From NCBI GenBank assembly GCA_964634875.1, contig CAZWKA010000005.1:27167-91166 (forward strand): a stretch of 64,000 nucleotides of DNA, given 5' to 3'. Below, one piece after another: positions 2,359 to 63,291 of this stretch. Made by a program: the position numbers and the translations under genes. The number at the start of each line of letters is the position of its first letter. Within the stretch, counting starts at the first letter, position 1. The stretch is from an uncultured Gammaproteobacteria bacterium (GTDB lineage Bacteria; Patescibacteriota; Patescibacteriia; Magasanikbacterales; GWA2-37-8). The notes beneath the pieces are model-generated. The model worked only from the letters and a program-made list of their open reading frames with translations, had not been told where the DNA came from and searched no databases.

Positions 2359-2910
2359 ATGAAGACTGAGTCTGTCCTCGAGAGTGCCCGCAACCTCGGC
2401 CACATCACGATCACGCTCGGCTTCGCCGCGTTCATCGCTGCGATGGTCGCGAGCGGGTGCGGCACAGAGCCGGTCGGACAGGGCGACGTCGAGGTCGCGA
2501 CCCCCGCGCCCGCGCCGGATCCGCGCTTCACAGCGCCGGGCAACCCCGATTCTCCGCCTTGCTTGGGCTGCGGTTACGCAGCCACGGCTGGCGAGAGCAA
2601 GTCTGTCGCGCCGCCTGCGTCCGTCACCGTTCCCAGCGGCTTCACGCTTCCGCTCGACCTCTCCGGCACGCCCCTCAAGGCCTACCCGGCCTACTCGGCG
2701 CTCTGCCGGGGTGGGGATGTGTCTATCCTCTCGGACTGCCGCAGCCAGGAGCGCGTCTGCACCGCTCCCGAGAACTCCAACGTGGCGGTCGGCTCGATCG
2801 ATCGTCTGTGGTGTTCCGACGGAACGCAGGTCCTCATCCTCATCTGCCCCCTGGACACGAGCGGGGACACGTTCACGGTTGGTACTGAGACCTTCGCTGG
2901 CTGCCGCTAG
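2359..2910 (+). CDS. GC-rich secreted lipoprotein (island gene 1), 183 aa
   Basis: RBS GGAGGG; signal peptide with lipobox (MVASGC); Cys-rich C-terminal half. G/C at most third codon positions, contrasting with flanking genes. The overlapping same-strand ORFs at 2384..2959 and 2457..2888 are GC artefacts. Confidence 0.6.
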   Translation: MKTESVLESARNLGHITITLGFAAFIAAMVASGCGTEPVGQGDVEVATPAPAPDPRFTAPGNPDSPPCLGCGYAATAGESKSVAPPASVTVPSGFTLPLDLSGTPLKAYPAYSALCRGGDVSILSDCRSQERVCTAPENSNVAVGSIDRLWCSDGTQVLILICPLDTSGDTFTVGTETFAGCR

Positions 2911-2946
2911 CCAGCCCCCCCCGAGTCTTCGGACACGGGAGCCCTA

Positions 2947-2971
2947 CGACCCGGATTAAAAACCCGGGTCG
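2947..2971 (+). terminator. GC hairpin after island gene 1
   Basis: cgacccgg attaaaaa ccgggtcg, immediately followed by the conserved AT-rich element. Confidence 0.4.
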
Positions 2972-2974
2972 CTC

Positions 2975-3010
2975 AAATAAATTTCTAAATTTTGTTTGGA
3001 AATTTTGAGA
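2975..3010. repeat. conserved AT-rich inter-gene element, copy 1 (AAATAAATTTCTAAATTTTGTTTGGAAATTTTGAGA)
   Basis: Near-identical to 4380..4414. Internal dyad AAATTTC / GAAATTT. Confidence 0.65.
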
Positions 3011-3119
3011 GTAAGTTCTTTACAACTTAAGGCTACTTACACTCCTGTGGTTAGAACAATGCTTAATGAGTCTTGTTTCAACCACGGGAGCAATCCCATT
3101 TCCTAGGGGGAAGAACACC

Positions 3120-4307
3120 ATGAATCAGACTTTTGCCTCTGCTTTCGCCATCGCCACCACTGTCCTCTTCGGCGCATGCGGCTCGTTGCCGCGGTGGGAG
3201 GATACAATCAAGGCGCCGGCCTTCCAGGCTGTGCGTGAGATCGTGGTCGCGAACGTCCAGCTGGACAGCGCCATTACTGGTACGGCCAACGGCCGTGTCG
3301 TGGTGGCCAAAGAGAAACTGTTCGACAAGACAGTGCTCCTCGGTGCACTCGAGAGCTATGACGTCGTGAGCGGCAGCAAAATCGCTGAGCGCATCCCGAC
3401 TGGTGACTGGCGCGAGACCTGGCACAGCGGCGCGCTCGTCGCTGGTGCGAAGGGTGAGGCTCTTATCGGCCTCGGCGGCGAGTTCCGGCAGATCAACAGC
3501 GATCTCGCGGACACGCAGCGCTTCGATCAGGCCTACACCTATGTGAATCCGGTCTGGACGCCCAGCGGCTGGCTCATCGGCGGGGCGGACAAGTTCGACG
3601 GTGGCGACTCGGTGAAGTACTACTTCAACGATCCGACTGGCGATTCGCCCCCGAGCTTCGCCTTCGACGGCTGTGGCTGGGTGCGGGGCATCGCGAAGCT
3701 GGGTCACACCACCTTCGCAGTTGTCTCGCGGCGCGATGGTAACGCCAAGAACTGGTTCGAGCTGCTCACCTTCACGAAGGGCGCACAGCACGTCTATCGG
3801 GCGCTCAAGACGGACACGGGACGAGTCGGAGGCTACTGCGGCGGTCTCCAGGGTCTGGAGCTTCTCGCTATCGAAGCGGATCGTGCTCGTGAAGAGGTTA
3901 TCGTCGTGTGGTCGTTCGATAAGGACGAGAACTACGAACTCCACGTTACGGCGTTCTCTGAGGACGGCCGGTTGCTGCGGGATCAGAAGCTTCTTTCCCG
4001 CTACGAGCGCGTGTATGCGGCCAAGATCTTCCGTGGGGGAGTCGCTGTCGTCGGGCTGAGCAAGCTCGGCGCTGGTGGCTTCACGCTCAAGCTGATCTCG
4101 ACCGACAGCACCATCAAGGAAGGCGAGGCAATCCCAAATAAGGATGTTGACTCGGTGAGTTCCTTCCGGATCGCCCAGGCTGACCCGAGTCACCTGGTGG
4201 TCGCCTACACCTCGCCGAGTCGGACGGCTGCCCAGGTTCGCTCCACGGTTCTCAAGGTCTACGACCTTGGACCGGGCCCGGGAGACGAGCCGCTCCACCT
4301 CGAGTAG
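3120..4307 (+). CDS. GC-rich secreted lipoprotein (island gene 2), ~395 aa
   Basis: RBS AGGGGG then ATG at 3120 (MNQTFASAFAIATTVLFGACGS; lipobox LFGAC). The track ORF starts further upstream at 3066. The antisense ORF 3078..4298 is a typical high-GC artefact. Confidence 0.6.
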   Translation: MNQTFASAFAIATTVLFGACGSLPRWEDTIKAPAFQAVREIVVANVQLDSAITGTANGRVVVAKEKLFDKTVLLGALESYDVVSGSKIAERIPTGDWRETWHSGALVAGAKGEALIGLGGEFRQINSDLADTQRFDQAYTYVNPVWTPSGWLIGGADKFDGGDSVKYYFNDPTGDSPPSFAFDGCGWVRGIAKLGHTTFAVVSRRDGNAKNWFELLTFTKGAQHVYRALKTDTGRVGGYCGGLQGLELLAIEADRAREEVIVVWSFDKDENYELHVTAFSEDGRLLRDQKLLSRYERVYAAKIFRGGVAVVGLSKLGAGGFTLKLISTDSTIKEGEAIPNKDVDSVSSFRIAQADPSHLVVAYTSPSRTAAQVRSTVLKVYDLGPGPGDEPLHLE

Positions 4308-4350
4308 CCTTCCCCCTCATCTCTTCCGCGCTTCGGCGCGCTCGAGACCA

Positions 4351-4375
4351 ACGCCCGCGATTCACTCGCGGGCGT
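4351..4375 (+). terminator. GC hairpin after island gene 2
   Basis: acgcccgcg attcact cgcgggcgt, followed by copy 2 of the AT-rich element. Confidence 0.4.
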
Positions 4376-4379
4376 CTTC

Positions 4380-4414
4380 AATTAAATTTCTAAATTTTAT
4401 TGGAAATTTTGAGA
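4380..4414. repeat. conserved AT-rich inter-gene element, copy 2 (AATTAAATTTCTAAATTTTATTGGAAATTTTGAGA)
   Basis: Roughly 31 of 35 positions match copy 1, with the same position relative to the preceding GC hairpin. Confidence 0.65.
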
Positions 4415-4428
4415 AGCATTATAACGCT

Positions 4429-4455
4429 AACACCTTTACAAAAGGTGTTTTTTGT
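4429..4455 (+). terminator. rho-independent terminator
   Basis: aacaccttt aca aaaggtgtt followed by TTTTTT. Confidence 0.5.
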
Positions 4456-4513
4456 TATCTACTACTTTAGTCTTTAAGTCTCTGCAACGCCCACTTGTCG
4501 GAGGAAATGCAAC

Positions 4514-5701
4514 ATGCATGTTTTTCGAATCATTGGTTGGTTACTGCCCGCGTGTCTTTCTGCGTGTGGCGAACCGGGTATGACCCCAGGTGCTGCTGAC
4601 CTGCCTCCCTCGGGCGATGAGCGTGGGTGTCAGTCCTTTGGTAATGAGGTTGTTGTCCGGGATGTGCCCCTCGGCGAGACGTATCGTATCGCTGCCTTGG
4701 CGAACAGCTACCTGGTCGCCTGGCACACGAATACCCGCGATGTTCCGAGGGAAGTTAACTTCCACCTGTTTGGTCTTGGCGGAGAGGCTGTCACCACGAA
4801 CCCAGTCACGATCCCGCATGGTGAGGTTGATCTCAATTTCGTGATCGCCGGCAAGGACGGGCGTTACTACGTCCAGACGGTCGAGTCGGTGGCCGGCCGG
4901 CCGTTGTATTGGCTGCATGCGTTATCGCCCGAAGACACTACCTCCATCGTTTCGGCACCGCTCACTGAGAACATGAATGTCTCGGGGATGGCTGTTAGTC
5001 CCTGGGGCCTCCTGGCTGTTTCTGGTAGTTCGACGGCGGAAGAGAGTAGCTACGCCGTTTCGACGGTGGATGAAAAAGCTACCCTGACTCATTTCGCTGA
5101 GATCCGTGAGGCGGGCACGACGTGTCCGGTCGTATCTGCGGTTGCCGCGAGCCATAATCAGCTTGCGATCGCTGCGGTGCGTGAAACGACGAGGGGTACG
5201 AGGAAGCTGAGCGTCATCATCCGTTCGGCAGACGGTTCGGTGAACGATGTTCTTATCGAGGAGCACCAGCGGGTAGCGCTCGAAGAGGCGTTCTACTGCG
5301 CGTCGTACGCTGTTTACATCAAGAAGCTCTTCGCCCTGCCCGACGGTTCGTTTGGTGTGTGGTGGTGGGACTATCGCGTCGCTGGCTACTACCTGACCGT
5401 TGTGTCGAACACTGGCGTTGCTGGTCCGGCGCGTCGAATCAAGCCGGTTCAGTTCCCGGGCATCTCTGATTTGGCTTGGGTGGAAGGTGATTTCGTTGCC
5501 AGCGTCTACCAGTACAACGGTCGGCCCGATGAAGTCGGTATTCTGCGTCTGCAGCTTGACCTGGAGGTTGAGACGAGCGACTACCTGAAGCTGGGCATCG
5601 ATAGTTGGGAGGCACCAAAGATCGCTTCCACAGGGCGACACTTGGCCGTCGTGCGCAATTCGCTTGAGTCACCCGCGGTCTACTTTCTCGCCTGCCGTTA
5701 G
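4514..5701 (+). CDS. GC-rich secreted lipoprotein (island gene 3), 395 aa
   Basis: RBS GGAGG; signal peptide with lipobox (LSACG); GC-rich codons; the antisense ORFs here are artefacts. Confidence 0.6.
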   Translation: MHVFRIIGWLLPACLSACGEPGMTPGAADLPPSGDERGCQSFGNEVVVRDVPLGETYRIAALANSYLVAWHTNTRDVPREVNFHLFGLGGEAVTTNPVTIPHGEVDLNFVIAGKDGRYYVQTVESVAGRPLYWLHALSPEDTTSIVSAPLTENMNVSGMAVSPWGLLAVSGSSTAEESSYAVSTVDEKATLTHFAEIREAGTTCPVVSAVAASHNQLAIAAVRETTRGTRKLSVIIRSADGSVNDVLIEEHQRVALEEAFYCASYAVYIKKLFALPDGSFGVWWWDYRVAGYYLTVVSNTGVAGPARRIKPVQFPGISDLAWVEGDFVASVYQYNGRPDEVGILRLQLDLEVETSDYLKLGIDSWEAPKIASTGRHLAVVRNSLESPAVYFLACR

Positions 5702-5769
5702 GCGATTTTGGCAATTTAGTGCCATCCCCAATCTATATTGGGCATGCGTGCGGACATGTTGCCCTCCGC

Positions 5770-5810
5770 TTTTCTCTTGAGCGCTTACGTATTAAGCTCT
5801 CAAGAGAAAA
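5770..5810 (+). promoter_or_regulatory. long hairpin between island gene 3 and the ECF sigma promoter
   Basis: ttttctcttga gcgcttacgtattaagc tcaagagaaaa forms an 11-bp perfect outer stem plus inner pairing. It may terminate the island transcript or act as an operator for the sigma gene. Confidence 0.4.
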
Positions 5811-5850
5811 ATTGTTTACCCTGATATTTTTTGGTAAACTACAGATTGTT

Positions 5851-6363
5851 ATGGCTTTTACTAAAAATGATTTTGAAAAGTTTTATAACGATCACTTTGA
5901 TAAAGTGTATCGTTTTATTTTCTTTCGGATTGGCAGCAACAAAGATGTGGCCGAGGATTTGGTATCCGAGATTTTTATGAAAGCGCTCAAAGCGTTCGAA
6001 ACGTATGACCCGAAGGTCAGCCAGTCAGCATGGATCATGACGATCGCAAAACATCATCTCCTTAATTACTGGAGGGATCGTAAAAATGCGGTGCCACTGC
6101 CCGGAAGCGAGATGTCCCAAGAAAATGGTGTGTTGGATAGTTTTTGGCTTAAAAGCGCTCTGTTACAGTTTGGTGTCCAAAAGGAGAAATGGCACGTAAC
6201 CGAACTTTTATTAAAATTAGAAACAAACGAGCGGGAAATTGTAACTTTTCACTACCTTTTGGGGTATAGTTATTTAGAGATTGCTGAACTGCGGGGTCAA
6301 AGCGAAGGGGCGGTAAAAGTTGCAGCCCACCGAGCGATTAAAAAAATGCGTGATTGGTTATGA
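5851..6363 (+). CDS. ECF-type RNA polymerase sigma factor
   Basis: Sigma-70 region 2 (YDPKVSQSAWIMTIAKHHLLNYWRDRKN) and region 4 HTH (EREIVTFHYLLGYSYLEIAELRGQSEGAVKVAAHRAIKKM). The ATG at 5851 follows a TTGTTT...TAAACT promoter. The track ORF start at 5719 is a GTG extension. Confidence 0.8.
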   Translation: MAFTKNDFEKFYNDHFDKVYRFIFFRIGSNKDVAEDLVSEIFMKALKAFETYDPKVSQSAWIMTIAKHHLLNYWRDRKNAVPLPGSEMSQENGVLDSFWLKSALLQFGVQKEKWHVTELLLKLETNEREIVTFHYLLGYSYLEIAELRGQSEGAVKVAAHRAIKKMRDWL

Positions 6364-7109
6364 AATTTTTACTAAAATACAATTTAAGAAAAATGGGTAA
6401 AGCCCTGAAGGCCGAGCCTGCTTTTAAGCAAATGCTGTGGGCGGTGCTCGAAAAATCTTTGGATACTTCCCGTGCGCCGAGAGTTTTGTGGTACCAAGGA
6501 TATGTTTTTCGGGTGGCAACTGCTTTTGTGCTTGCTGCTGTAGTTGTTGGTGCAACAGGCGCCTATGCTTATGCGAGTCCCACAGTTACCGAGGGTACTG
6601 TTTTGTACCCAGTAAAAAAGACACTGGAGAAAGTGGGGGAGAAATTACAGGTCACGCCCGAGAAGAAAGCGGTCTTTTTGTTAAAACAGATCGATCGCCG
6701 CGAGGCTGAGAAAAAAGTTCTGGAGACGAAGCATCAGCCCATCCAAAACATTGAGACAGCGATTGGGAGTACTGAACAAAAGCTCGAGACAGCGAGCGCG
6801 GCACTTAAGGCGACGCCAAAGAAAAATCCGGCTTTACTTAAAAAAGTTGAGAAACGTTTGACGGAGCGCCAAGAACGGCTTGAAAAAGCCAAACGTGAAT
6901 TGGAAAAACGCCTAGAAAAACGGGAAGAACGTGATGAGGATGATAGTGAGGGGAAGGAAGAAAAGAAAAGGGAAGAGAGTGGTGTTATAGAGCAGCTCGG
7001 TGAGAAATTGTTACAAGATAAACCTGTGGAGTCACGCGAGCAGAAAAAAGACTTGGAAGACGTGGTGCAGGAGAGTGTTGAGGAAAGGCTTATGGATCGG
7101 CTCAGATGA
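6360..7109 (+). CDS. putative membrane-spanning anti-sigma factor
   Basis: Its ATG overlaps the sigma TGA (ATGA). Short cytoplasmic N-terminus, one TM helix (VATAFVLAAVVVGATGAYAYA), and a charged coiled-coil ectodomain. Confidence 0.5.
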   Translation: MKFLLKYNLRKMGKALKAEPAFKQMLWAVLEKSLDTSRAPRVLWYQGYVFRVATAFVLAAVVVGATGAYAYASPTVTEGTVLYPVKKTLEKVGEKLQVTPEKKAVFLLKQIDRREAEKKVLETKHQPIQNIETAIGSTEQKLETASAALKATPKKNPALLKKVEKRLTERQERLEKAKRELEKRLEKREERDEDDSEGKEEKKREESGVIEQLGEKLLQDKPVESREQKKDLEDVVQESVEERLMDRLR

Positions 7110-7156: not shown

Positions 7157-7564
7157 CTATCTTTTGACTGCTGCATCAAGTATTTTGTTAACCTCGGCAT
7201 CGGCTTCTTTGTTGCCCGCGCGCAGCGTGTGGCGATAGGTAACTTTTTTGAATTTGGTGGAGAGGTTATAAGCTGCGAGCCATAATTTTTGGAGCGTCGG
7301 TTCTTTGACGCGGTATTCACGACGCATCTGTTTGACAGCAAGCTCGCTGTCGAGAATGCAGTCGACTTCAGTGGCGCCGAGCTCGAGCGCTTTTTCGAGG
7401 GCGAGAATGAGTGCGGTGTATTCGGCAAAGTTGTTGGTCTGTGTGCCTAGGTATTTACCAAAGGCTGCAACGACTTCCTGATGCTCGTTTTTGACCACAA
7501 CTCCAGCCGCCGAAGGTCCAGGGTTTCCACGTGAGCCGCCATCGGTAAAAGTAATAAGTTTCAT
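7157..7564 (-). CDS. rnhA: ribonuclease HI
   Basis: ITFTDGGSRGNPGP... matches the RNase H catalytic fold pattern (DGS.GNPGP, downstream E, D..D). The likely start is M at 7564 (MKLITFTDGG). Confidence 0.8.
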   Translation of the reverse strand: MKLITFTDGGSRGNPGPSAAGVVVKNEHQEVVAAFGKYLGTQTNNFAEYTALILALEKALELGATEVDCILDSELAVKQMRREYRVKEPTLQKLWLAAYNLSTKFKKVTYRHTLRAGNKEADAEVNKILDAAVKR

Positions 7565-43376: not shown

Positions 43377-45536
43377 ATGCAAAAACTTTATTTTTTACTC
43401 CTTTGCCTCTTGCTTGCGGCGCTCGGTGCCAATAGCATTTGGTGGCAAAGTTGGGCTGTGGGCGCGCTGGGACTTGTTTTTTACTTTTGGTTGACTGCCC
43501 GGCCTGCTGGCAGGTGGTTGCAGCATTTTTTTTGTTATACAGAGAATATCCCGCAGCGTTTTTGGGGGGTGTTTGGAAGTTTTTTATTAGTGAGCAGCTT
43601 GTCCGGAGGATTAGTTGTGACCGGTTTTTTTTCAAGTTCAGCGGTGATCGTTGTTTTAGCTCTTAATGCTTGTTTTTGGCCGTTAGTGTGTCGAATGCTC
43701 CCAATCAAAAAAAATGAAATTGAGTTTTATGCTGCTCAGGAAAAATTTTTTATACATGCAAAATTAAGCTGGGGACTTGGTTTGGCATATGCTGTTTTGG
43801 TGCTGCTAGGGCTGGGACTGCTGCTTAGTTCCCGTTCTTCCGGTGTGATTAGTGCGCCCTGGCAAGTAATTCATCCGATTTTTATCTATGTTTTTGCGGC
43901 AGCAACCTTTATTTTGGGGCTACTTATTTTTTCCCGGCTAGGAAGTCGTTTGCTTTTAGTTTTGTTCATGGTGCATGGGCTCCTCATGCATAGCTACCTG
44001 CCGTTGACGCATACGCTCTTGTATGGCGCAGATAGCTGGCGACACCTCGCGACAGAAGAGCGCTTAGTCAGAGGCGAGGGCACCTTTAAGCCGGAAATTA
44101 GCGACACGGTAAGTGCACCTAACCAAGATATTGATTTAGGGCTCGTTTCGTATAGCCAGTTGTGGGGGATAACAAGTGTTTTAGCTGGTTTAACGGGAGC
44201 GTCGCTTTTGTGGCTCAATCAGTGGCTTGTGCCAATCCTGTGGGCATTGGTACTACCACTTCTCCTCTATGAGTTTGCCTGCACGCTTCGTTGGAGCCGG
44301 GAGCTTACCTTTGGGCTTATTTTCTTAAGTTTTTTGCCGTTTGCCTTAACGAGCGCTGGTTCGTTTACTTTGCCGGTTAGTTTTGGTTTTTTAAGTTGGC
44401 TTTTTTTTATTCTGCTGCTTGTTAAGCGCCTGGTGAAACCTGAGACCGGTCAACGAATTGTGCTCGGATTTTTATGTATTCAGTTATGCGGTGGGTATGC
44501 ACTCTATGCGCTTTTGGCCGTTATCTTTTTTATCGTGGCAGAATTATTTTTGCAGCTTCAGAATAAAGCGCAACGACATTTTAACGGATTTTTTGCGGTA
44601 ATAGTTGGATTGAGTATTGTTGGAATCACTGTGTTCATTCCGCTGTTAGAATATTTTGCCGGCTATAACACGCTTGTGCCAACTACTCTATGGTTTGGCC
44701 AGCTGAAGCAGTTCGTGGGTAATTTTACAGCTGCGTATGTGGCTGCCGGTCCTCGTCCACACGATATTGCCACAGGTAATATTATTTTTAACCAAGTTCC
44801 GTTGGCTAGTTTTGTGACCAACCTTTTTACCTGGACACGCTGGCCGCTGGTTGGGTTTATGCTGGCATGGTGGGGTTTATGTATTCGTGGCTGGTATTAT
44901 TTGTTGCAGCAGCGAGGGGCGGTATCGCATTGGTTCGCTGTGGTGAGTGGTGGAGTGTTCGGTGCTTATGTCCTGGGGCGTTATTTTTTTCAGGGTGAGC
45001 AAGTGCTAACGCGTCGGCTTGAAGTGGTTGTGGCTTTAGCGGCTATTTTTTTAGTGTGCAGCGCAGTTCTTGGTTTGTCGGATCGGTATAAGTTGCGCTA
45101 TAGTAAAAATTGGCTGTTGGTTGTGTTGGGGGTGGTTAGCCTGGCCACGAGTGCTTCGTTCACGCTTGGACCAGATACGCTGACGGTTAGTAATGATCAA
45201 TACCAGGCCATGAAATGGGTACATGAGCGAGTTGGGCAAAATCAGGCGAAGTGTGTGCTTGCCGAGACGTTTCCGCTCCTAGCGCTCGAAGCCCTCAGCC
45301 GTAAGGAAATTATTGGAGGAGGTTTTCCAATCTCGCATGATTTTGAGCAGCCGGAACAGCAAAAGTTGTATACCCGATTAGCCGCCGACCCGCTTGATAA
45401 CGTGGCAGTCGGTGAAGCATTGCAGCTAACGGATGCCGAACACTGTTTCTTGGTTGCGCCGCTGAATGAGGAGGTGGTCGCTGTAGAGCCGGCTGCAAAG
45501 TTTGGCACTGTGGCGGTTTGGGAATACGGTAAATAA
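43377..45536 (+). CDS. large polytopic membrane protein (at least 12 TM) with a ~190-aa C-terminal soluble domain; possible GT-C-type glycosyltransferase
   Basis: Highly hydrophobic N-terminal 520 aa; a loop with YGADSWRH near residue 220. Family not recognised. Preceded by a TATACT -10 and a G-rich tract. Confidence 0.5.
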   Translation: MQKLYFLLLCLLLAALGANSIWWQSWAVGALGLVFYFWLTARPAGRWLQHFFCYTENIPQRFWGVFGSFLLVSSLSGGLVVTGFFSSSAVIVVLALNACFWPLVCRMLPIKKNEIEFYAAQEKFFIHAKLSWGLGLAYAVLVLLGLGLLLSSRSSGVISAPWQVIHPIFIYVFAAATFILGLLIFSRLGSRLLLVLFMVHGLLMHSYLPLTHTLLYGADSWRHLATEERLVRGEGTFKPEISDTVSAPNQDIDLGLVSYSQLWGITSVLAGLTGASLLWLNQWLVPILWALVLPLLLYEFACTLRWSRELTFGLIFLSFLPFALTSAGSFTLPVSFGFLSWLFFILLLVKRLVKPETGQRIVLGFLCIQLCGGYALYALLAVIFFIVAELFLQLQNKAQRHFNGFFAVIVGLSIVGITVFIPLLEYFAGYNTLVPTTLWFGQLKQFVGNFTAAYVAAGPRPHDIATGNIIFNQVPLASFVTNLFTWTRWPLVGFMLAWWGLCIRGWYYLLQQRGAVSHWFAVVSGGVFGAYVLGRYFFQGEQVLTRRLEVVVALAAIFLVCSAVLGLSDRYKLRYSKNWLLVVLGVVSLATSASFTLGPDTLTVSNDQYQAMKWVHERVGQNQAKCVLAETFPLLALEALSRKEIIGGGFPISHDFEQPEQQKLYTRLAADPLDNVAVGEALQLTDAEHCFLVAPLNEEVVAVEPAAKFGTVAVWEYGK

Positions 45537-45557
45537 AATAATTTTTTAATATTTTTT

Positions 45558-45965
45558 ATGGACTGCATTTTTTGTAAAATTATTGCTAAAGAAATTCCAA
45601 GCCACCTAGTTTATGAAGATGATTTTGTGGTTGCGTTTTTAGACAAGTTCCCTTGCGCCAAAGGCCATACGGTCGTCATACCTAAGCAGCATTTTGCTTC
45701 ACTGTGGGAAATGAATAGTGAGGATTCAACCCGTATGGGGGCTGCACTATGGACTGTGGCTGGCAGGGTTCAAACAAAACTCAAGCCCGATGGTATGAAT
45801 ATTGGGCTTAATAATGGTAAGGCTGCTGGGCAAGCTGTACCACATTTGCATTGGCATATACTTCCGCGTTACGAGGGGGATGGAGGGGGAAGTATACATT
45901 CAATAGTTAAGAACCCGGGTGAAACAGAGGTGAAGGAGTTGGCAAAACTTTTTAGTACACCCTAA
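45558..45965 (+). CDS. HIT-family nucleotide hydrolase
   Basis: Histidine triad VPHLHWHILPR. Confidence 0.85.
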   Translation: MDCIFCKIIAKEIPSHLVYEDDFVVAFLDKFPCAKGHTVVIPKQHFASLWEMNSEDSTRMGAALWTVAGRVQTKLKPDGMNIGLNNGKAAGQAVPHLHWHILPRYEGDGGGSIHSIVKNPGETEVKELAKLFSTP

Positions 45966-46151: not shown

Positions 46152-46739
46152 GTGAAAAATATATTTAAAAGTAAAAAGTCAATTTGGGCACTGATTAATG
46201 CAATTGTTTTTATTATTTTGTCTGTTATTTTGTATCTGCGGCAAGGTAGCTTCGAATCGCCTTTGTCGAGTTCACGCTTGGATGTTGTCCAGGACGACAG
46301 CGAGACGCCCGGGCAAAGCGTACAAACGATTGAGACGACTACTACGAGTGTGGCTGTTGTGGTGCGGGTAATTGATGGGGACACTGTCGAACTATCAACG
46401 GGCGCACGCGTCCGGTATATCGGCATTAATACTCCCGAGACTGTTGATCCACGCAAATCGGTTGAATGTTTTGGCAAAGAGTCGTCGGCCTACAACAAGC
46501 AGTTGGTGCTGGGTCAAGAGGTTCGTCTTGAAAAAGATGTTTCCGATACTGACCGTTACCATCGACTGCTCCGGTATGTCTATTTGGAAGACGGGACTTT
46601 TTTGAATTTGAAACTTATTGAAGACGGCTATGCGGATGCGGCTACGTATCCACCAGATACCAAATACAGCGAGCAATTTGTTACAGCTGCCAAGGTCGCG
46701 CGTGAAACCGGCAAAGGGCTCTGGGGGAAATGTAAATAA
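46152..46739 (+). CDS. membrane-anchored staphylococcal-nuclease-like (SNase) thermonuclease
   Basis: N-terminal TM helix; SNase core RVIDGDTVEL...RYIGINTPE...DRYHRLLRYVY. The opposite-strand ORF 46007..46477 is rejected. Confidence 0.8.
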   Translation: MKNIFKSKKSIWALINAIVFIILSVILYLRQGSFESPLSSSRLDVVQDDSETPGQSVQTIETTTTSVAVVVRVIDGDTVELSTGARVRYIGINTPETVDPRKSVECFGKESSAYNKQLVLGQEVRLEKDVSDTDRYHRLLRYVYLEDGTFLNLKLIEDGYADAATYPPDTKYSEQFVTAAKVARETGKGLWGKCK

Positions 46740-46992
46740 TGTCCAAATATTCACAGTGAAGACTTTTATTCGCTCGACAAGACGAAACAGCCCCCGATGA
46801 AGCTCAGGGTTGAAAAAATCGCCAAGAATGAAGAAGAATATGAAAGTGATGTAGATGACATTAAAAGCGGATTTGGTTTTCGCCCTTTACTATTTAGGGT
46901 ACATAAAAGACTCTCCCAAGGTTTGAGCACGTTCGAATGACATTTCCTGAGCGTTTTCCAGATGAAGCCCTAGAATAAGGCAGCGGTTTACC

Positions 46993-47021
46993 TTGTTAAT
47001 TTTGGCTAATAGCTGTATACT
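46993..47021 (+). promoter_or_regulatory. promoter TTGTTA, 17 bp, TATACT
   Basis: Ends 10 nt upstream of the ATG at 47032. Its -35 is the TTG alternative start of the over-extended track ORF. Confidence 0.45.
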
Positions 47022-47031
47022 AGGGGTAAAT

Positions 47032-49254
47032 ATGGATAGTATCGACCAAACAGAAAACGAAAAGCTGGCTGCCTCAATTGATCCGACAATCAATTTTTTT
47101 GGCATGACTAATTACCGGAACCAGAACCGGCGTTTTGGTATTAAGATTGATGACCGGCGCCGTCATATGTATTTGGTGGGGAAGACAGGTATGGGTAAAA
47201 CCACCATTCTTGAGAACATGGTTATTAACGATATTTATTCCGGCCACGGTATTGGGCTGGTAGATCCGCATGGCGACTTTGCCGAAAAGGTGCTTAACTT
47301 TGTTCCCGCTAACCGTATTAACGATATTGTCTATTTCAATCCTTCGGATATTGATTATCCGATTGGGTTTAATATTTTGGAATCAATTAACCCCGATTAC
47401 AAACACTTAGTGACCTCGGGTCTGATGGGTGTCTTTAAAAAGATTTGGCCAGACGTCTGGAGTGCCCGTATGGAATATATTTTGAATAATACGATTTTGG
47501 CGCTGTTAGATTTTCCAGGTACGACACTCTTGGGTATTAACCGTCTACTTGCTGATAACGAGTACCGCAAGCGAGTGGTTGCCAACCTAAAAGATCCGGT
47601 GGTCAAAGCTTTTTGGCAAACTGAGTTTGCGGGATACAGCGATAAATATAAGCAAGAAGCCGTTGCGCCTATCCAAAACAAGATTGGTCAATTTTTGTCA
47701 GCATCAATTATCCGCAACATTGTGGCTCAGGTCAAATCGCGTATCGATATCCGCGAGATTATGGACAGCAAGAAAATTTTTATTATGAACTTGTCCAAAG
47801 GGCGCATTGGTGAAGATAACTCGCGCCTCCTGGGCGGTATGCTTATTACCAAGATCCAGCTTTCGGCCATGGAGCGTGTCGATATAATTGAAAAAGACCG
47901 TAAAGATTTCTTTTTGTATGTTGACGAGTTCCAAAACTTTGCCACGGAAAGTTTTGCGAATATTTTGTCCGAAGCCCGTAAGTACCGCCTTGATTTGATT
48001 ATGGCACACCAGTACATGGAACAGCTTGATGAAAAGGTGTTGGCGGCGGTTATTGGTAACGTTGGTACTATGGTTACCTTCCGAGTAGGATCGAGTGATG
48101 CCGAAATTTTGGCTAAAGAATTTATTCCAACATTTGTGGAAGAAGATTTAGTTAACTTGCCCAAGTACCATGTTTATTTAAAACTCATGATTGACGGTGT
48201 TGCGTCGCGACCATTTAGCGCAATGACCTTGCCGCCTATTGGCAGTCCAACCGGAAGCTTGGAGAAAGTAATACGCGTTTCGCGTGAACGCTATGCAGTT
48301 AATCGCAATACCATTGAAGATAAGATTGCAAAATGGAGTGGTATGCTTATAAATGCCGAAGACGTTGAGGCAGAAATGGCGCTTGGTCCCGATGTAGTTA
48401 CTTTTAAAGAAGATTTACCTCCGAAGCCAGCGGTTGTGCCTCCACCTCTGGCTAATGTCTCAACTCCACTTCCTGTCGTACCGCCCGCTCCGGCTAGTGT
48501 CCCAAAACCGGCTGAAAACCGTACTCCAGCTGCCCCAGCATCGCCGGTTCCGCCGAGTTTGGTAAGTGCTCAGCAGCAACGTGCCGTGTATGTTAATCGG
48601 ACTACTCCTTTGCCAGCATCTTCGCCTGCTGTAAGGTCGCCGCAATTACAGCCAATGCGTGAGCCGCAGCGGGATACTTTTCAGCGTCCGCCGCAGCTTC
48701 GTGATCAATCTGCCGCTGGTTTAGGCTCTGCAATGGGTGCAGATGGCGAGCGAAGAAAAAAGCGGCGGCGCAAAAAGAAAGGTTCTGGTTCGGGCTCCTT
48801 GCCCTCACAAGGGGAACAAGTGCTCTTGGTTGATCCGGCACAACAGGGGATATCGCTTAGCGCCATGCTTCCTAAAAACGCGCCGCAGAATGACCGGTCG
48901 CGAGACATTCGTCCGCCTCGGCAGCCGCAGGCACCACAACAGCCAACGAGCATGCCCGAACAACGCCAGGGTGAGCGCCGCGAGCAGTCGGGTGCACCTG
49001 AGCCAATTAATTTGGGTAGCCCGGTACAGCCTCGTGAACAACCGCCAGTACAACCACCTGCGCCTGCTGCACCCCGTCCAGCGCCAGTTGCACCACCGAC
49101 ATCAGCTGTTCCGACGGCTCCGCCACCACCTGCTCCAATGGCACCGCCACCGCAGCCTCGGCCCGAACCGCCACCAACACCGCCAGCTCTTCGTCCCGAA
49201 CAGCAACCAACCCAATTACAGCCGGGGCAAGTCGTAAAGCTTGATATACATTAA
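47032..49254 (+). CDS. orphan VirD4/TraD/TrwB-like (FtsK-HerA superfamily) P-loop ATPase with a ~300-aa Pro/Gln/Ala-rich disordered C-terminal tail
   Basis: Walker A LVGKTGMGKTT and Walker B FFLYVDEFQNF, ~430-aa core. The tail (from ~aa 450) is low-complexity PPAPA-type with an RKKRRRKKK cluster. Confidence 0.65.
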   Translation: MDSIDQTENEKLAASIDPTINFFGMTNYRNQNRRFGIKIDDRRRHMYLVGKTGMGKTTILENMVINDIYSGHGIGLVDPHGDFAEKVLNFVPANRINDIVYFNPSDIDYPIGFNILESINPDYKHLVTSGLMGVFKKIWPDVWSARMEYILNNTILALLDFPGTTLLGINRLLADNEYRKRVVANLKDPVVKAFWQTEFAGYSDKYKQEAVAPIQNKIGQFLSASIIRNIVAQVKSRIDIREIMDSKKIFIMNLSKGRIGEDNSRLLGGMLITKIQLSAMERVDIIEKDRKDFFLYVDEFQNFATESFANILSEARKYRLDLIMAHQYMEQLDEKVLAAVIGNVGTMVTFRVGSSDAEILAKEFIPTFVEEDLVNLPKYHVYLKLMIDGVASRPFSAMTLPPIGSPTGSLEKVIRVSRERYAVNRNTIEDKIAKWSGMLINAEDVEAEMALGPDVVTFKEDLPPKPAVVPPPLANVSTPLPVVPPAPASVPKPAENRTPAAPASPVPPSLVSAQQQRAVYVNRTTPLPASSPAVRSPQLQPMREPQRDTFQRPPQLRDQSAAGLGSAMGADGERRKKRRRKKKGSGSGSLPSQGEQVLLVDPAQQGISLSAMLPKNAPQNDRSRDIRPPRQPQAPQQPTSMPEQRQGERREQSGAPEPINLGSPVQPREQPPVQPPAPAAPRPAPVAPPTSAVPTAPPPPAPMAPPPQPRPEPPPTPPALRPEQQPTQLQPGQVVKLDIH

Positions 49255-62005: not shown

Positions 62006-63112
62006 CTAGGCTGGGGGTCCGAGCTCAGCCGTCTCCACGCGCGAGCTGAGGAACGCGCCCAGGTGTCGCCGGAGCGTTGTGATACCCGGCTTGATCAGCT
62101 CGGCATAGTCAACGAGGGCGCTGCCGATCATCGCATACTCCTTGGTCATTCCCGAGAGCTGATAGGTGGAACGCCCAAGCTTGAGCGGGTACTCGATCTG
62201 CTTCTTGTTGGTCGAGTGCCGAGCGACGTTCGGCTTGAAGCCTAGGTTGTTTCTCAAAAAGCCGAGCCCGCGGCTCGGGCGCTGCGAGATGTCATGCTCG
62301 TTGTACAGCGAGAGCTTGGCCGAGGTGAGCTCGCCATCTTTCAGAACCGTCTCAATGGCGTAGCGCTCTGTATAGACGATCTCCGGCAGAAGCGAAGGGT
62401 TGTTCATGAGCTCGTGGAACTCGGGCGGCAGAACAGCACGAACGCAATTCTCATAGAGATCGAGGTCCAGCAGCTCAGGACCGTCGAGCGGCTCTTCACC
62501 CCGCCAGATCGGCCGACCGAGCGGGATGCCGGTCAGGCGCTTGATCGTCTTCAGGATCGACTTGCGCTCCTCGTCGAGCAGGTGGCTCACGTTCGCCGTG
62601 AAGAAGGTGCGACCACGCTCTACCCTTCGCTTGAGCGCACCCCACTGCTGGATGATCCAGAGCGCGCCGTGGTCCGGCGAGATCGGGCGACCGTCATCGA
62701 AGGTCCAGCTGCAGGTTACGTAGTTTTCGGACTTTCTCTGCTTTAGGCTGAACCCGACGCGAAAACTCTTCGGGCCGATACCTACCTGATTCATGCCGCT
62801 GTAGCTCAGTTCCACCGGACCGTAGGTGACCGTGTCGCGCTGCCCCGAGAACGCGGAGTTTCCGACCCCCTCTCGGATAGTGTAAGGAGCGAGGTGATCA
62901 CCCGGCCGATACTCAAGGAGCCAGCTGGTCGGCAGGAGTGCGCTCGAAGGCTCCACCCACACGTGATCGCCCATGTTGTGGATCATCAGGTGCCGAGAGC
63001 CTGTCTCGTGGTGGTCCTCCGGCCGCAGCTGCCACTCACCCCGTATACGTAGGAGCGGCGTTGGGCTCGGGAACCGGACCTGGTTTGCGAAAAAATAGTT
63101 CTGACCATTCAT
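62006..63112 (-). CDS. GC-rich orphan hypothetical protein, ~368 aa
   Basis: Visibly GC-rich ORF with GC at third codon positions in an AT-richer genome. RBS GAGGAAAAG upstream of the ATG at 63112. The track ORF extends to 63211. The plus-strand ORFs inside it are artefacts. Confidence 0.55.
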   Translation of the reverse strand: MNGQNYFFANQVRFPSPTPLLRIRGEWQLRPEDHHETGSRHLMIHNMGDHVWVEPSSALLPTSWLLEYRPGDHLAPYTIREGVGNSAFSGQRDTVTYGPVELSYSGMNQVGIGPKSFRVGFSLKQRKSENYVTCSWTFDDGRPISPDHGALWIIQQWGALKRRVERGRTFFTANVSHLLDEERKSILKTIKRLTGIPLGRPIWRGEEPLDGPELLDLDLYENCVRAVLPPEFHELMNNPSLLPEIVYTERYAIETVLKDGELTSAKLSLYNEHDISQRPSRGLGFLRNNLGFKPNVARHSTNKKQIEYPLKLGRSTYQLSGMTKEYAMIGSALVDYAELIKPGITTLRRHLGAFLSSRVETAELGPPA

Positions 63113-63291
63113 GAACTTTTCCTCTGCTCTCCCTTTCCATTCAAGGCTCCGGTCAGGGCACTGCCTGACATGCGGAGGAGTCTTGGTAACTCTCAGGAGT
63201 AGCTCGCGCATAACAAATTTATTGTGCTCGAGCTCATCCGGAAAACTCTTAAGAGTATACTTTTTAGATCATTTTGTCAATATACTGGGGT

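Follow-up and report, generated by a model that had tools for sequence, protein, structure and literature searches.

Background

Among described proteins, those closest to the ATPase studied here are the type IV coupling proteins (T4CPs) TrwB of R388, Cag-beta of H. pylori and DotL of Legionella. The C-terminal extensions of DotL, and of TraD from the F plasmid, are long tails that bind adaptors. A T4CP subfamily without a transmembrane domain (TMD) is recognised, the members of which dock via a small membrane partner, as TraJ of pIP501 does with TraI; the C-terminal domains of T4CPs are described as enriched in glutamate and aspartate (PMC7434980). In the Patescibacteria, passages of the survey by Quinonero-Coronel et al. 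(2025; PMC12102498) give 5,713 VirD4-like homologues across 2,918 genomes, roughly two per genome, of which just 148 lie near virB4; they also report that a VirD4-like homologue of Southlakia is non-essential, and that exaptation 'cannot be ruled out'. The gene considered here encodes such a protein in a 64 kb stretch of contig CAZWKA010000005.1 (positions 27,167 to 91,166, hereafter the window), where it follows a gene for a nuclease of the staphylococcal nuclease (SNase) family. From this adjacency, the original prediction was that nuclease and ATPase could form a functional unit, either for DNA uptake and nucleotide scavenging or for defence.

The probable explanation is instead that these are two independent genes, loose syntenic neighbours, of which the ATPase is a T4CP-like protein without a TMD that is coupled across the phylum to a protein of family DUF8128. 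With TMD-less T4CPs such as TraJ it would have in common the T4CP nucleotide-binding domain, a helical insertion, the missing TMD and a variable C-terminal extension, and the membrane protein encoded upstream across the family could act as an anchor. By contrast with TraJ, it is chromosomal and phylum-wide, has no relaxase or type IV secretion system (T4SS) operon and does not lie on a conjugative element; the small partners of the TraI type are unrelated in size to DUF8128 (~450 aa, predicted to be VirB4-like), which is not adjacent in the window; and its tail is proline-rich and basic rather than acidic. It also differs from TrwB, Cag-beta and DotL, its best profile and fold matches, in having neither their N-terminal TMD nor a T4SS context, at an identity of just 11-17% over the fold matches. 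There is a further likeness to VirB4 (TrwK) and to its split relatives such as TrsD (VirB4-N-terminal-like, pGO1-type), as DUF8128 and the ATPase are colinear with the N-terminal and ATPase domains of VirB4, in the manner of a split VirB4; however, the ATPase half is nearer to T4CPs (E 5e-5 against 0.18), and DUF8128 has no sequence similarity to solved VirB4. The orphan VirD4-like homologues of the above survey are likewise widespread and rarely near virB4, and the window ATPase family is almost certainly the same gene set, to judge from the passages concerned; those passages make no mention of DUF8128 as a partner, of a cluster linked to secDF, of how strongly the family is conserved or of motifs in the tail (PMC12102498).

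Results and discussion

Distribution of the ATPase and its upstream partner

A search with the ATPase core (aa 1-463) gave at least 8000 scored candidates, all significant. The best 120 have 78-100% core identity and lengths of 449-774 aa and, where the source is named, come from Patescibacteria, mostly Candidatus Magasanikbacteria. A genome scan, in which each species was represented once, found at least 599 loci, of which the best 80 (L001-L080) were analysed; all 80 belong to Patescibacteria, with core identities of 60-84%. Conservation of the core exceeds that of DnaB from these loci: identities in the window's relatives are 97/95/89/83/81/86/82% for the ATPase core and 95/96/80/75/72/76/72% for DnaB, and RecR is down to 57-64% in four of these relatives. 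T4CPs of mobile elements are usually far less conserved than this core is within its phylum. The family is Patescibacteria-wide and chromosomal, and it is housekeeping-like and single-copy-like in its distribution.

Directly upstream of the ATPase, on the same strand, 74 of the 80 loci carry a gene for DUF8128 (PF26449 in the precomputed Pfam label), at a median gap estimated at ~9 nt. The encoded protein, of ~450 aa, has a hydrophobic helix at its N-terminal end, the conserved motif LNxEELATLWHFP and a PPxNLP motif at the C-terminal end. A protein with Sigma70_r4 and HARE-HTH domains is encoded ahead of DUF8128 in 51 of the 80 loci, and secD-secF lie upstream in 44 of the 74 with DUF8128; the gene order in Patescibacteria is often secD-secF-(Sigma70_r4/HARE-HTH)-DUF8128-ATPase (examples in Table 1). 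By contrast, tblastn and phmmer detected no SNase up to 6 kb from the ATPase in any of the 80. The DUF8128-ATPase pair is a true phylum-wide coupling, a lead that was found in the relatives and not in the window. The predicted nuclease-ATPase unit is thus not supported, and it fails on both grounds for rejection that had been named with it: the upstream gene conserved across the phylum is DUF8128 rather than SNase, and the ATPase belongs to a chromosomal, housekeeping-like family with a core conserved above the level of DnaB.

Compared with 1.84 billion representative proteins, the DUF8128 profile has 3301 matches, and no DUF8128-ATPase fusion is present among the top 150 of these, all of which are 369-691 aa long. 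A search of a literature library found no mention of DUF8128. Its AlphaFold2 model (pLDDT 81, pTM 0.74) has as its 14 best PDB matches only TrwK/VirB4 of R388, with E values from 3e-5 to 7e-3. As DUF8128 is devoid of ATPase motifs, the predicted fold presumably matches the N-terminal domain of VirB4. One contig, L088, was considered as a case of DUF8128 without a downstream ATPase and rejected, since its end (7402-7556) is an inverted duplicate of its own DUF8128 gene, an assembly artefact that could pass for a gene on the opposite strand.

Family assignment of the ATPase core

The window protein is matched in Pfam by TrwB_AAD_bind (1.4e-8, aa 39-356), TraG-D_C (6e-5), DUF87 (5e-5; 23.9 bits against a cut-off of 23.2) and T4SS-DNA_transf (9e-4), in agreement with the T4CP/TraD-like core originally predicted. 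Both TrwB_AAD_bind and TraG-D_C match all 44 family members tested, while FtsK_SpoIIIE (PF01580) matches two of the 44, at E ~0.006, and leaves the window protein unmatched. A PDB profile search with the family profile gave TrwB at 3.6e-4 and DotL at 1.4e-3; the Walker A and B motifs align to those of TrwB, with the same A-to-B spacing of ~240 residues. Foldseek with the low-confidence ATPase model placed Cag-beta first (5.5e-5), followed by DotL and TrwB and then by HerA (2e-3), with VirB4 at 0.18. Helices are modelled at residues 121-245, between Walker A and Walker B. Because the Pfam, PDB profile and fold searches favour TrwB, DotL and Cag-beta, the core is filed as T4CP-like without a TM domain, with a predicted nucleotide-binding domain and a putative all-alpha insertion. 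The absence of a TM anchor had also been correctly foreseen: no TM segment is found, the maximum 19-residue hydrophobicity being 1.38. The start was placed at the ATG at 47032, where protein conservation begins in the alignment with relatives; an upstream TTG at 46993 was rejected, as it lies inside a promoter-like element and ahead of the conserved start.

The C-terminal tail

The 300 aa tail consists of 23% Pro, 11% Ala and 10% Gln, has no Cys and carries a net charge of +9. No secondary structure is present in its AlphaFold2 model, in which the pLDDT is ~40-50, with 58-66 over the last ~50 residues; the long, disordered, polybasic tail of the original prediction therefore stands, its patch reading RRKKRRRKKK. 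Tandem Repeats Finder detected no repeats in the tail DNA, the low complexity being confined to the protein level. Tail identity is 57% with one of the two closest relatives and 49% with the other, becoming undetectable beyond them. Length is variable as well: the 120 closest homologues have tails of 4 to 332 residues (median 203), and those of the genome loci span 93 to 527.

Short motifs were counted in the 116 close homologues whose tails reach 80 aa or more. A C-terminal peptide like PGQVxK(L/I)D is found in at least 92 of them, with visible variants in most others; a QKGISL-like motif occurs in 87 and a polybasic patch in 52. As these motifs are conserved despite the low complexity, the tail is read as a docking arm: it behaves like a disordered arm with candidate docking motifs rather than like junk. 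Related C-terminal peptides, accompanied by (V/I)(S/N)LxE(L/V) motifs, are also found in the distant DUF8128-linked orthologues. In the DUF8128-linked lineages, 39 of 48 tails carry two CxxC pairs that Pfam assigns to zf_Tbcl_2, probably a treble-clef zinc finger. By contrast, tails in the window's clade (defined below) are without Cys, and the loci of 10 of 12 relatives encode a separate zf_Tbcl_2 protein of ~100 aa downstream, in a gene between the ATPase and MnmA (Table 1), with two copies of C-x2-C...LPF-x-P...RPV(Y/F)C-x2-C; neither the window nor L081 and L082 have this gene. The alternation between a part of the tail and a separate gene looks like a domain split.

The window's clade and its variable slot

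Loci with a core identity of at least 78% form the clade of the window (L001-L003, L081-L083, L085-L087 and L090-L092), in which DUF8128 is not upstream of the ATPase. Their usual frame is RecR-YbaB-DnaB on the reverse strand, a ~700-aa membrane protein, a HIT hydrolase, a variable slot and the ATPase, although L085 differs upstream. The membrane protein and HIT gene (43377..45965 in the window), which bound the slot together with the ATPase, are also present in L001-L003, L081-L083, L086, L087 and L092. This membrane protein type, just 36-57% identical, is kept with HIT directly upstream of the ATPase across the clade that is without DUF8128. Downstream, MnmA-AlaRS and infA-rpmJ-rpsM-rpsK-rpsD-rpoA are common to DUF8128-linked and DUF8128-less ATPases and, because of this shared synteny, the two forms are orthologues rather than paralogues. 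In the window itself there has been further rearrangement 3' of the ATPase, where the Pfam scan identified a ProRS-like gene.

The slot holds between zero and eight genes. It is empty in L001, L002 and L087; contains NUDIX and lytic transglycosylase genes in L086 and a PolB-type exonuclease in L083; a small ORF, SNase and a 214-aa protein of unknown function in L081 and L082; NUDIX, SLT, SNase, PPIase, exonuclease and AMMECR1 in L092; and NUDIX, SLT, radical SAM, SNase, two small ORFs, a second radical SAM and AMMECR1 in L090. The short contig L091 covers just the end of the slot, with SNase 46 nt ahead of the ATPase, and in the window the slot holds SNase alone. Hence, even within the clade, SNase varies in both presence and spacing: it is missing in 7 of 13 loci (the window and its 12 relatives), and where present is separated from the ATPase by zero to four unrelated genes (the 214-aa unknown; PPIase, exonuclease, AMMECR1, radical SAM). 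A homologue search with SNase gave 13 contigs common to SNase and ATPase homologues; in the ten loci taken before any selection for a contig shared with an SNase homologue (the window, L001-L003, L081-L083 and L085-L087), SNase is present in three.

A very recent insertion of SNase can be rejected, as the contexts in L090-L092 show it to be an old, often lost member of the string between HIT and the ATPase. Its direct adjacency to the ATPase in the window is recent, because the 214-aa gene was deleted without trace, and the adjacency in L091 arose independently. The co-directional string upstream of the ATPase in this clade is rich in hydrolases (HIT, NUDIX, SNase, PolB-type exonuclease), which leaves a faint remnant of the scavenging idea, as these act on nucleotides or nucleic acids.

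The nuclease gene and the intergenic gap

The membrane-anchored SNase of the original prediction is confirmed. Pfam SNase (PF00565) matches aa 86-192 (E=3.4e-24), covering positions 1-106 of the 107 in the profile, and the NCBIfam NucI-like model matches at 1.2e-33, its 116 bits lying below the equivalog cut-off of 250. A basic N-terminus, in which KSKKS precedes the single hydrophobic helix IWALINAIVFIILSVILYL (aa 11-29; Kyte-Doolittle 19-residue mean 2.66), is followed by a ~55-residue linker rich in Ser, Thr, Asp, Glu and Gln and then by the full-length SNase domain. This layout fits an N-in signal anchor (type II) with a predicted extracytoplasmic nuclease domain, and both the full-length domain and the N-terminal membrane anchor are shared with the thermonuclease family, including the membrane-tethered YncB-type proteins of Gram-positive bacteria. 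More than 4500 relatives were found in the homologue search, with source names of 'thermonuclease family protein' or 'micrococcal nuclease'.

The motifs DGDT, R...TPE and YHR can be seen by eye. Unlike its family, in which close relatives keep the Asp of (V/I)DTPE, the window protein has Asn at this site, reading IGINTPE (46428-46448) against IGVDTPE in L081 and L082, its two closest orthologues. The position is presumably that of Asp40 in the S. aureus nuclease, a Ca2+ ligand. Because of the Asn at this presumed ligand site, the activity of the window SNase may be lowered or its metal dependence altered. Identity to the orthologues in L081 and L082 is 61-68%, where the ATPase core of the same relatives is at 95-97%. 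Accessory and fast-evolving, SNase belongs to a kind of surface enzyme that is common among Patescibacteria, and it probably degrades extracellular nucleic acid.

Between the two genes, the predicted gap and separate promoter can both be recognised, the latter as a promoter-like TTGTTA-17-TATACT, with 10 nt between its end and the ATPase ATG. The sequence block is kept in the alignment with L081 and L082, and it may be the promoter of the ATPase; the consensus scan found no enrichment of promoter-like motifs over shuffles in the gap region overall. As the -10 hexamer ends just 10 nt ahead of the start codon, an mRNA from this site would have a very short leader. An AGGGG at 47022-47026 has the alternative reading of a ribosome-binding site on a longer transcript. 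Since the 214-aa gene occupies this position in L081 and L082, the window represents a deletion in the gap, and tblastn with the 214-aa protein detected no remnant there.

Proposed mechanism and alternative explanations

In the proposed mechanism, the ATPase would form a TrwB-like ring at the inner membrane face, docked at the membrane by DUF8128 much as small membrane partners dock TMD-less T4CPs, and ATP would drive the hand-over or pumping of a macromolecular substrate, possibly nucleic acid, as hinted at by the neighbouring HTH protein, the basic patch and the zinc finger. The tail would be a flexible arm, in which the polybasic patch, QKGISL, PGQVxKLD and, in most lineages, the zinc finger would recruit partners, substrate or membrane. 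In the window's clade, a rearrangement would have parted the ATPase from DUF8128 and placed it behind HIT and the variable slot, the zinc finger would have become the separate small gene of other members while the tail grew longer and zinc-free, and a recent loss of the 214-aa gene would have brought SNase beside the ATPase. The window ATPase is a lineage variant of the catalogued T4CP-derived family, unlinked from DUF8128, without a zinc finger and with a lengthened tail.

Several observations weigh against this account. A profile of 190 sequences detects no DUF8128 in the window, nor does it in the flanking DNA of seven relatives (L001-L004, L081-L083), and no DUF8128 homologue on the large contigs of the clade's ATPases is found among the top 120, so the window ATPase may work without DUF8128 or with another partner. 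The TM-score of the DUF8128-VirB4 match is just ~0.33, and the PDB profile search provides no sequence link between the two. The AlphaFold2 model of the ATPase has a mean pLDDT of 55, with residues 301-398 below 50, and was built from a shallow alignment in which all sequences are at least 56% identical; as the model is poor, both the fold ranking and the all-alpha-domain assignment are soft. The locus frequencies, drawn from the best 80 of at least 599 loci, are estimates; the synteny with secDF, HTH and ribosomal genes may reflect housekeeping gene order and not function; and the non-essential Southlakia homologue, as described in passages of PMC12102498, may or may not be an orthologue of this ATPase family.

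That the ATPase is a genuine T4SS coupling protein, bringing DNA or protein substrates to that channel, with VirB4, TrsD, VirB3, VirB6 and pilins encoded at a distance and DUF8128 acting as an adaptor to VirB4, seems unlikely, although its core is T4CP-like and the predicted DUF8128 fold resembles VirB4, a known T4SS ATPase subunit. T4CP genes are often away from virB4, and the T4SS loci of Patescibacteria have no recognisable T4CP according to passages of PMC12102498 and PMC10633639. Passages of the former also speak against it, as only the 148 of 5,713 homologues are near virB4, the Southlakia homologue is dispensable where the T4SS is essential, and relaxases are nearly absent from the phylum. 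Furthermore, the conserved neighbours of the ATPase are secDF and ribosomal genes and, as originally noted, no T4SS, relaxase or conjugation gene is found by Pfam among the ~50 larger ORFs across the full length of the window. An FtsK/SpoIIIE- or HerA-like DNA translocase for segregation or repair, with the Pro/Gln-rich region resembling the FtsK linker, is highly improbable. Such proteins are of the same ATPase superfamily, DUF87 is the HerA central domain and just passes its Pfam cut-off, HerA is among the fold matches, and housekeeping-level conservation is combined with a neighbourhood of RecR, DnaB and DnaG. However, T4CPs stand above HerA in both the sequence and the fold searches, the FtsK_SpoIIIE matches are sparse and exclude the window protein, and there is no N-terminal TM helix as in FtsK. 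The neighbourhood of RecR and DnaB is confined to the window's clade, and there is no NurA-like partner, the adjoining nuclease being an SNase that is predicted to face outwards. Transcriptome papers on Saccharibacteria (TM7x) mention ftsK; if FtsK is present, it probably fills this role already.

The nuclease retains some part in two further explanations. In the one, the clade's string of HIT, NUDIX, lytic transglycosylase, SNase and exonuclease would be a scavenging set, with the ATPase powering the import of DNA or oligonucleotides made by SNase. The co-directional order HIT-NUDIX-SLT-SNase-...-exonuclease-...-ATPase of L090 and L092, and its reduced versions in the window, L081, L082, L086 and L091, accord with this, as does the inability of Patescibacteria to make nucleotides, for which the uptake route is open and competence is dispensable in Southlakia (PMC11665869); the polybasic patch could bind nucleic acid. 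Nevertheless, this must be judged improbable, because it concerns a single ancestral arrangement that is confined to one clade and not seen in the remaining 77 species-level loci (L004-L080); within the clade, SNase is missing from more than half of the loci, unrelated genes (PPIase, AMMECR1, radical SAM) intervene, the ATPase has its own promoter-like element, no channel component is encoded and the window SNase has Asn at the presumed Ca2+-ligand site. The other, a two-gene anti-phage module of nuclease effector and ATPase sensor, is hardly credible. PADLOC matches the ATPase with mad8 (3e-15) and HerA models and the SNase with the candidate 'SNc+LTD' (1.2e-37), but these are domain-level matches only, as no other component of the MADS, HerA-containing or SNc+LTD systems is present among the neighbours or family partners. 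Prediction puts the nuclease domain outside the cell but the ATPase within it, their adjacency is not conserved, and a single-copy-like, phylum-wide gene more conserved than DnaB behaves in the opposite way to a defence gene.

A bolder extension of the preferred account, in which the ATPase is a TMD-less T4CP-like protein coupled to DUF8128, is that the two genes encode an undescribed, phylum-wide translocation machine of the Patescibacteria envelope, T4SS-independent though made of type IV secretion parts and maybe the missing import route of nucleic acid for nucleotide supply, which in the window's clade was rewired to a scavenging string, with the lengthened basic tail replacing the adjacent DUF8128. 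This is regarded as a rather doubtful proposition.

Features of the window and of related loci

Both ORFs lie at the coordinates given in the original prediction; the positions of all features are collected in Table 1. According to Pfam, the ~50 larger ORFs of the window contain only housekeeping genes, including DnaJ, MurA-like, CTP synthase, Era-like GTPase, LepA, MurJ, MraZ/MraW, MraY-like, RecR, DnaB, class II aminoacyl-tRNA synthetase, DnaG, sigma-70 and MurG; scans of the window for Rfam families and tRNAs found none. Away from the ATPase, the segment 2359-5701 has a G+C content of 0.55-0.58, against ~0.45 elsewhere, and contains three ORFs without a Pfam match, two of which have lipoprotein-like N-termini (LFGACGS, LSACGE). 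It is directly followed, at 5719-7109, by an ECF-type sigma factor and a DUF5667 protein, possibly an anti-sigma factor, and the region 2359-7109 is possibly an island that was acquired or that encodes surface proteins. G+C is also raised (0.54) in another stretch, which includes a 401-aa ORF without a Pfam match (62006-63211, reverse strand). Among the related loci, L002-L004, L013, L015, L020, L021 and others are records of metagenome-assembled genomes with third-party annotation, titled 'uncultured Gammaproteobacteria' or 'Bdellovibrionales'; on records with a Patescibacteria-type locus such titles look like mislabels.

Table 1. Coordinates of features in the window and, where a locus number is given, in related loci
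Feature	Position	Strand	Basis	Remark
Polytopic membrane protein, 719 aa	43377-45536	+	Pfam	upstream frame; no family match
HIT hydrolase	45558-45965	+	Pfam	
Signal-anchored SNase-family (thermonuclease) gene, 195 aa	46152..46739	+	Pfam, hydrophobicity	GTG start
SNase TM helix, aa 11-29	46182-46238	+	hydrophobicity	
SNase domain, aa 86-192	46407-46727	+	Pfam	
Intergenic gap SNase-ATPase, 292 nt	46740..47031	+		214-aa gene of unknown function here in two closest relatives
Promoter-like element TTGTTA-17 nt-TATACT	46993..47021	+	consensus scan	9/12 matches
ATPase gene, 740 aa	47032-49254	+	ORF	
ATPase core, aa 1-440	47032..48351	+	Pfam, PDB profile search, Foldseek	
Walker A GKTGMGKT, aa 50-57	47179-47202	+		
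Helical insertion (all-alpha-domain-like), aa 121-245	47392-47766	+	structure model	
Walker B FLYVDEFQNF, aa 294-303	47911-47940	+		
ATPase C-terminal tail, aa 441-740 and stop codon	48352..49254	+	composition, model	
Polybasic patch RRKKRRRKKK, aa 574-583	48751-48780	+		
Internal tail motif VLLVDPAQQGISLSAML	48820-48870	+		
C-terminal tail motif LQPGQVVKLDIH	49216-49251	+		
Separate zf_Tbcl_2 gene	L083 14674-15003			
Separate zf_Tbcl_2 gene	L085 9758-10042			
Separate zf_Tbcl_2 gene	L086 14285-14608			
Separate zf_Tbcl_2 gene	L090 8117-8434			
Separate zf_Tbcl_2 gene	L091 2608-2934			
Separate zf_Tbcl_2 gene	L092 11724-12047			
Gene order example	L070 3663-7620			order examples are from within L005-L080 and L084
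Gene order example	L019 561-7674			
Gene order example	L084 2192-11254			

Conclusions

The pairing of SNase with the ATPase amounts to the usual noise of gene neighbourhoods. The ATPase is out of the ordinary in itself: it is one of the most conserved proteins of its genome region, derives from conjugation machinery and is unlinked to the T4SS genes of its phylum. Patescibacteria are without nucleotide, amino-acid and lipid synthesis and, since the competence machinery proved dispensable in the one species tested, the question stands how they acquire nucleotides (PMC11665869). For the field of nucleotide acquisition, a conserved and putatively membrane-docked motor together with DUF8128 provides a concrete two-gene target, and the genetically tractable Saccharibacteria could serve to test the pair.

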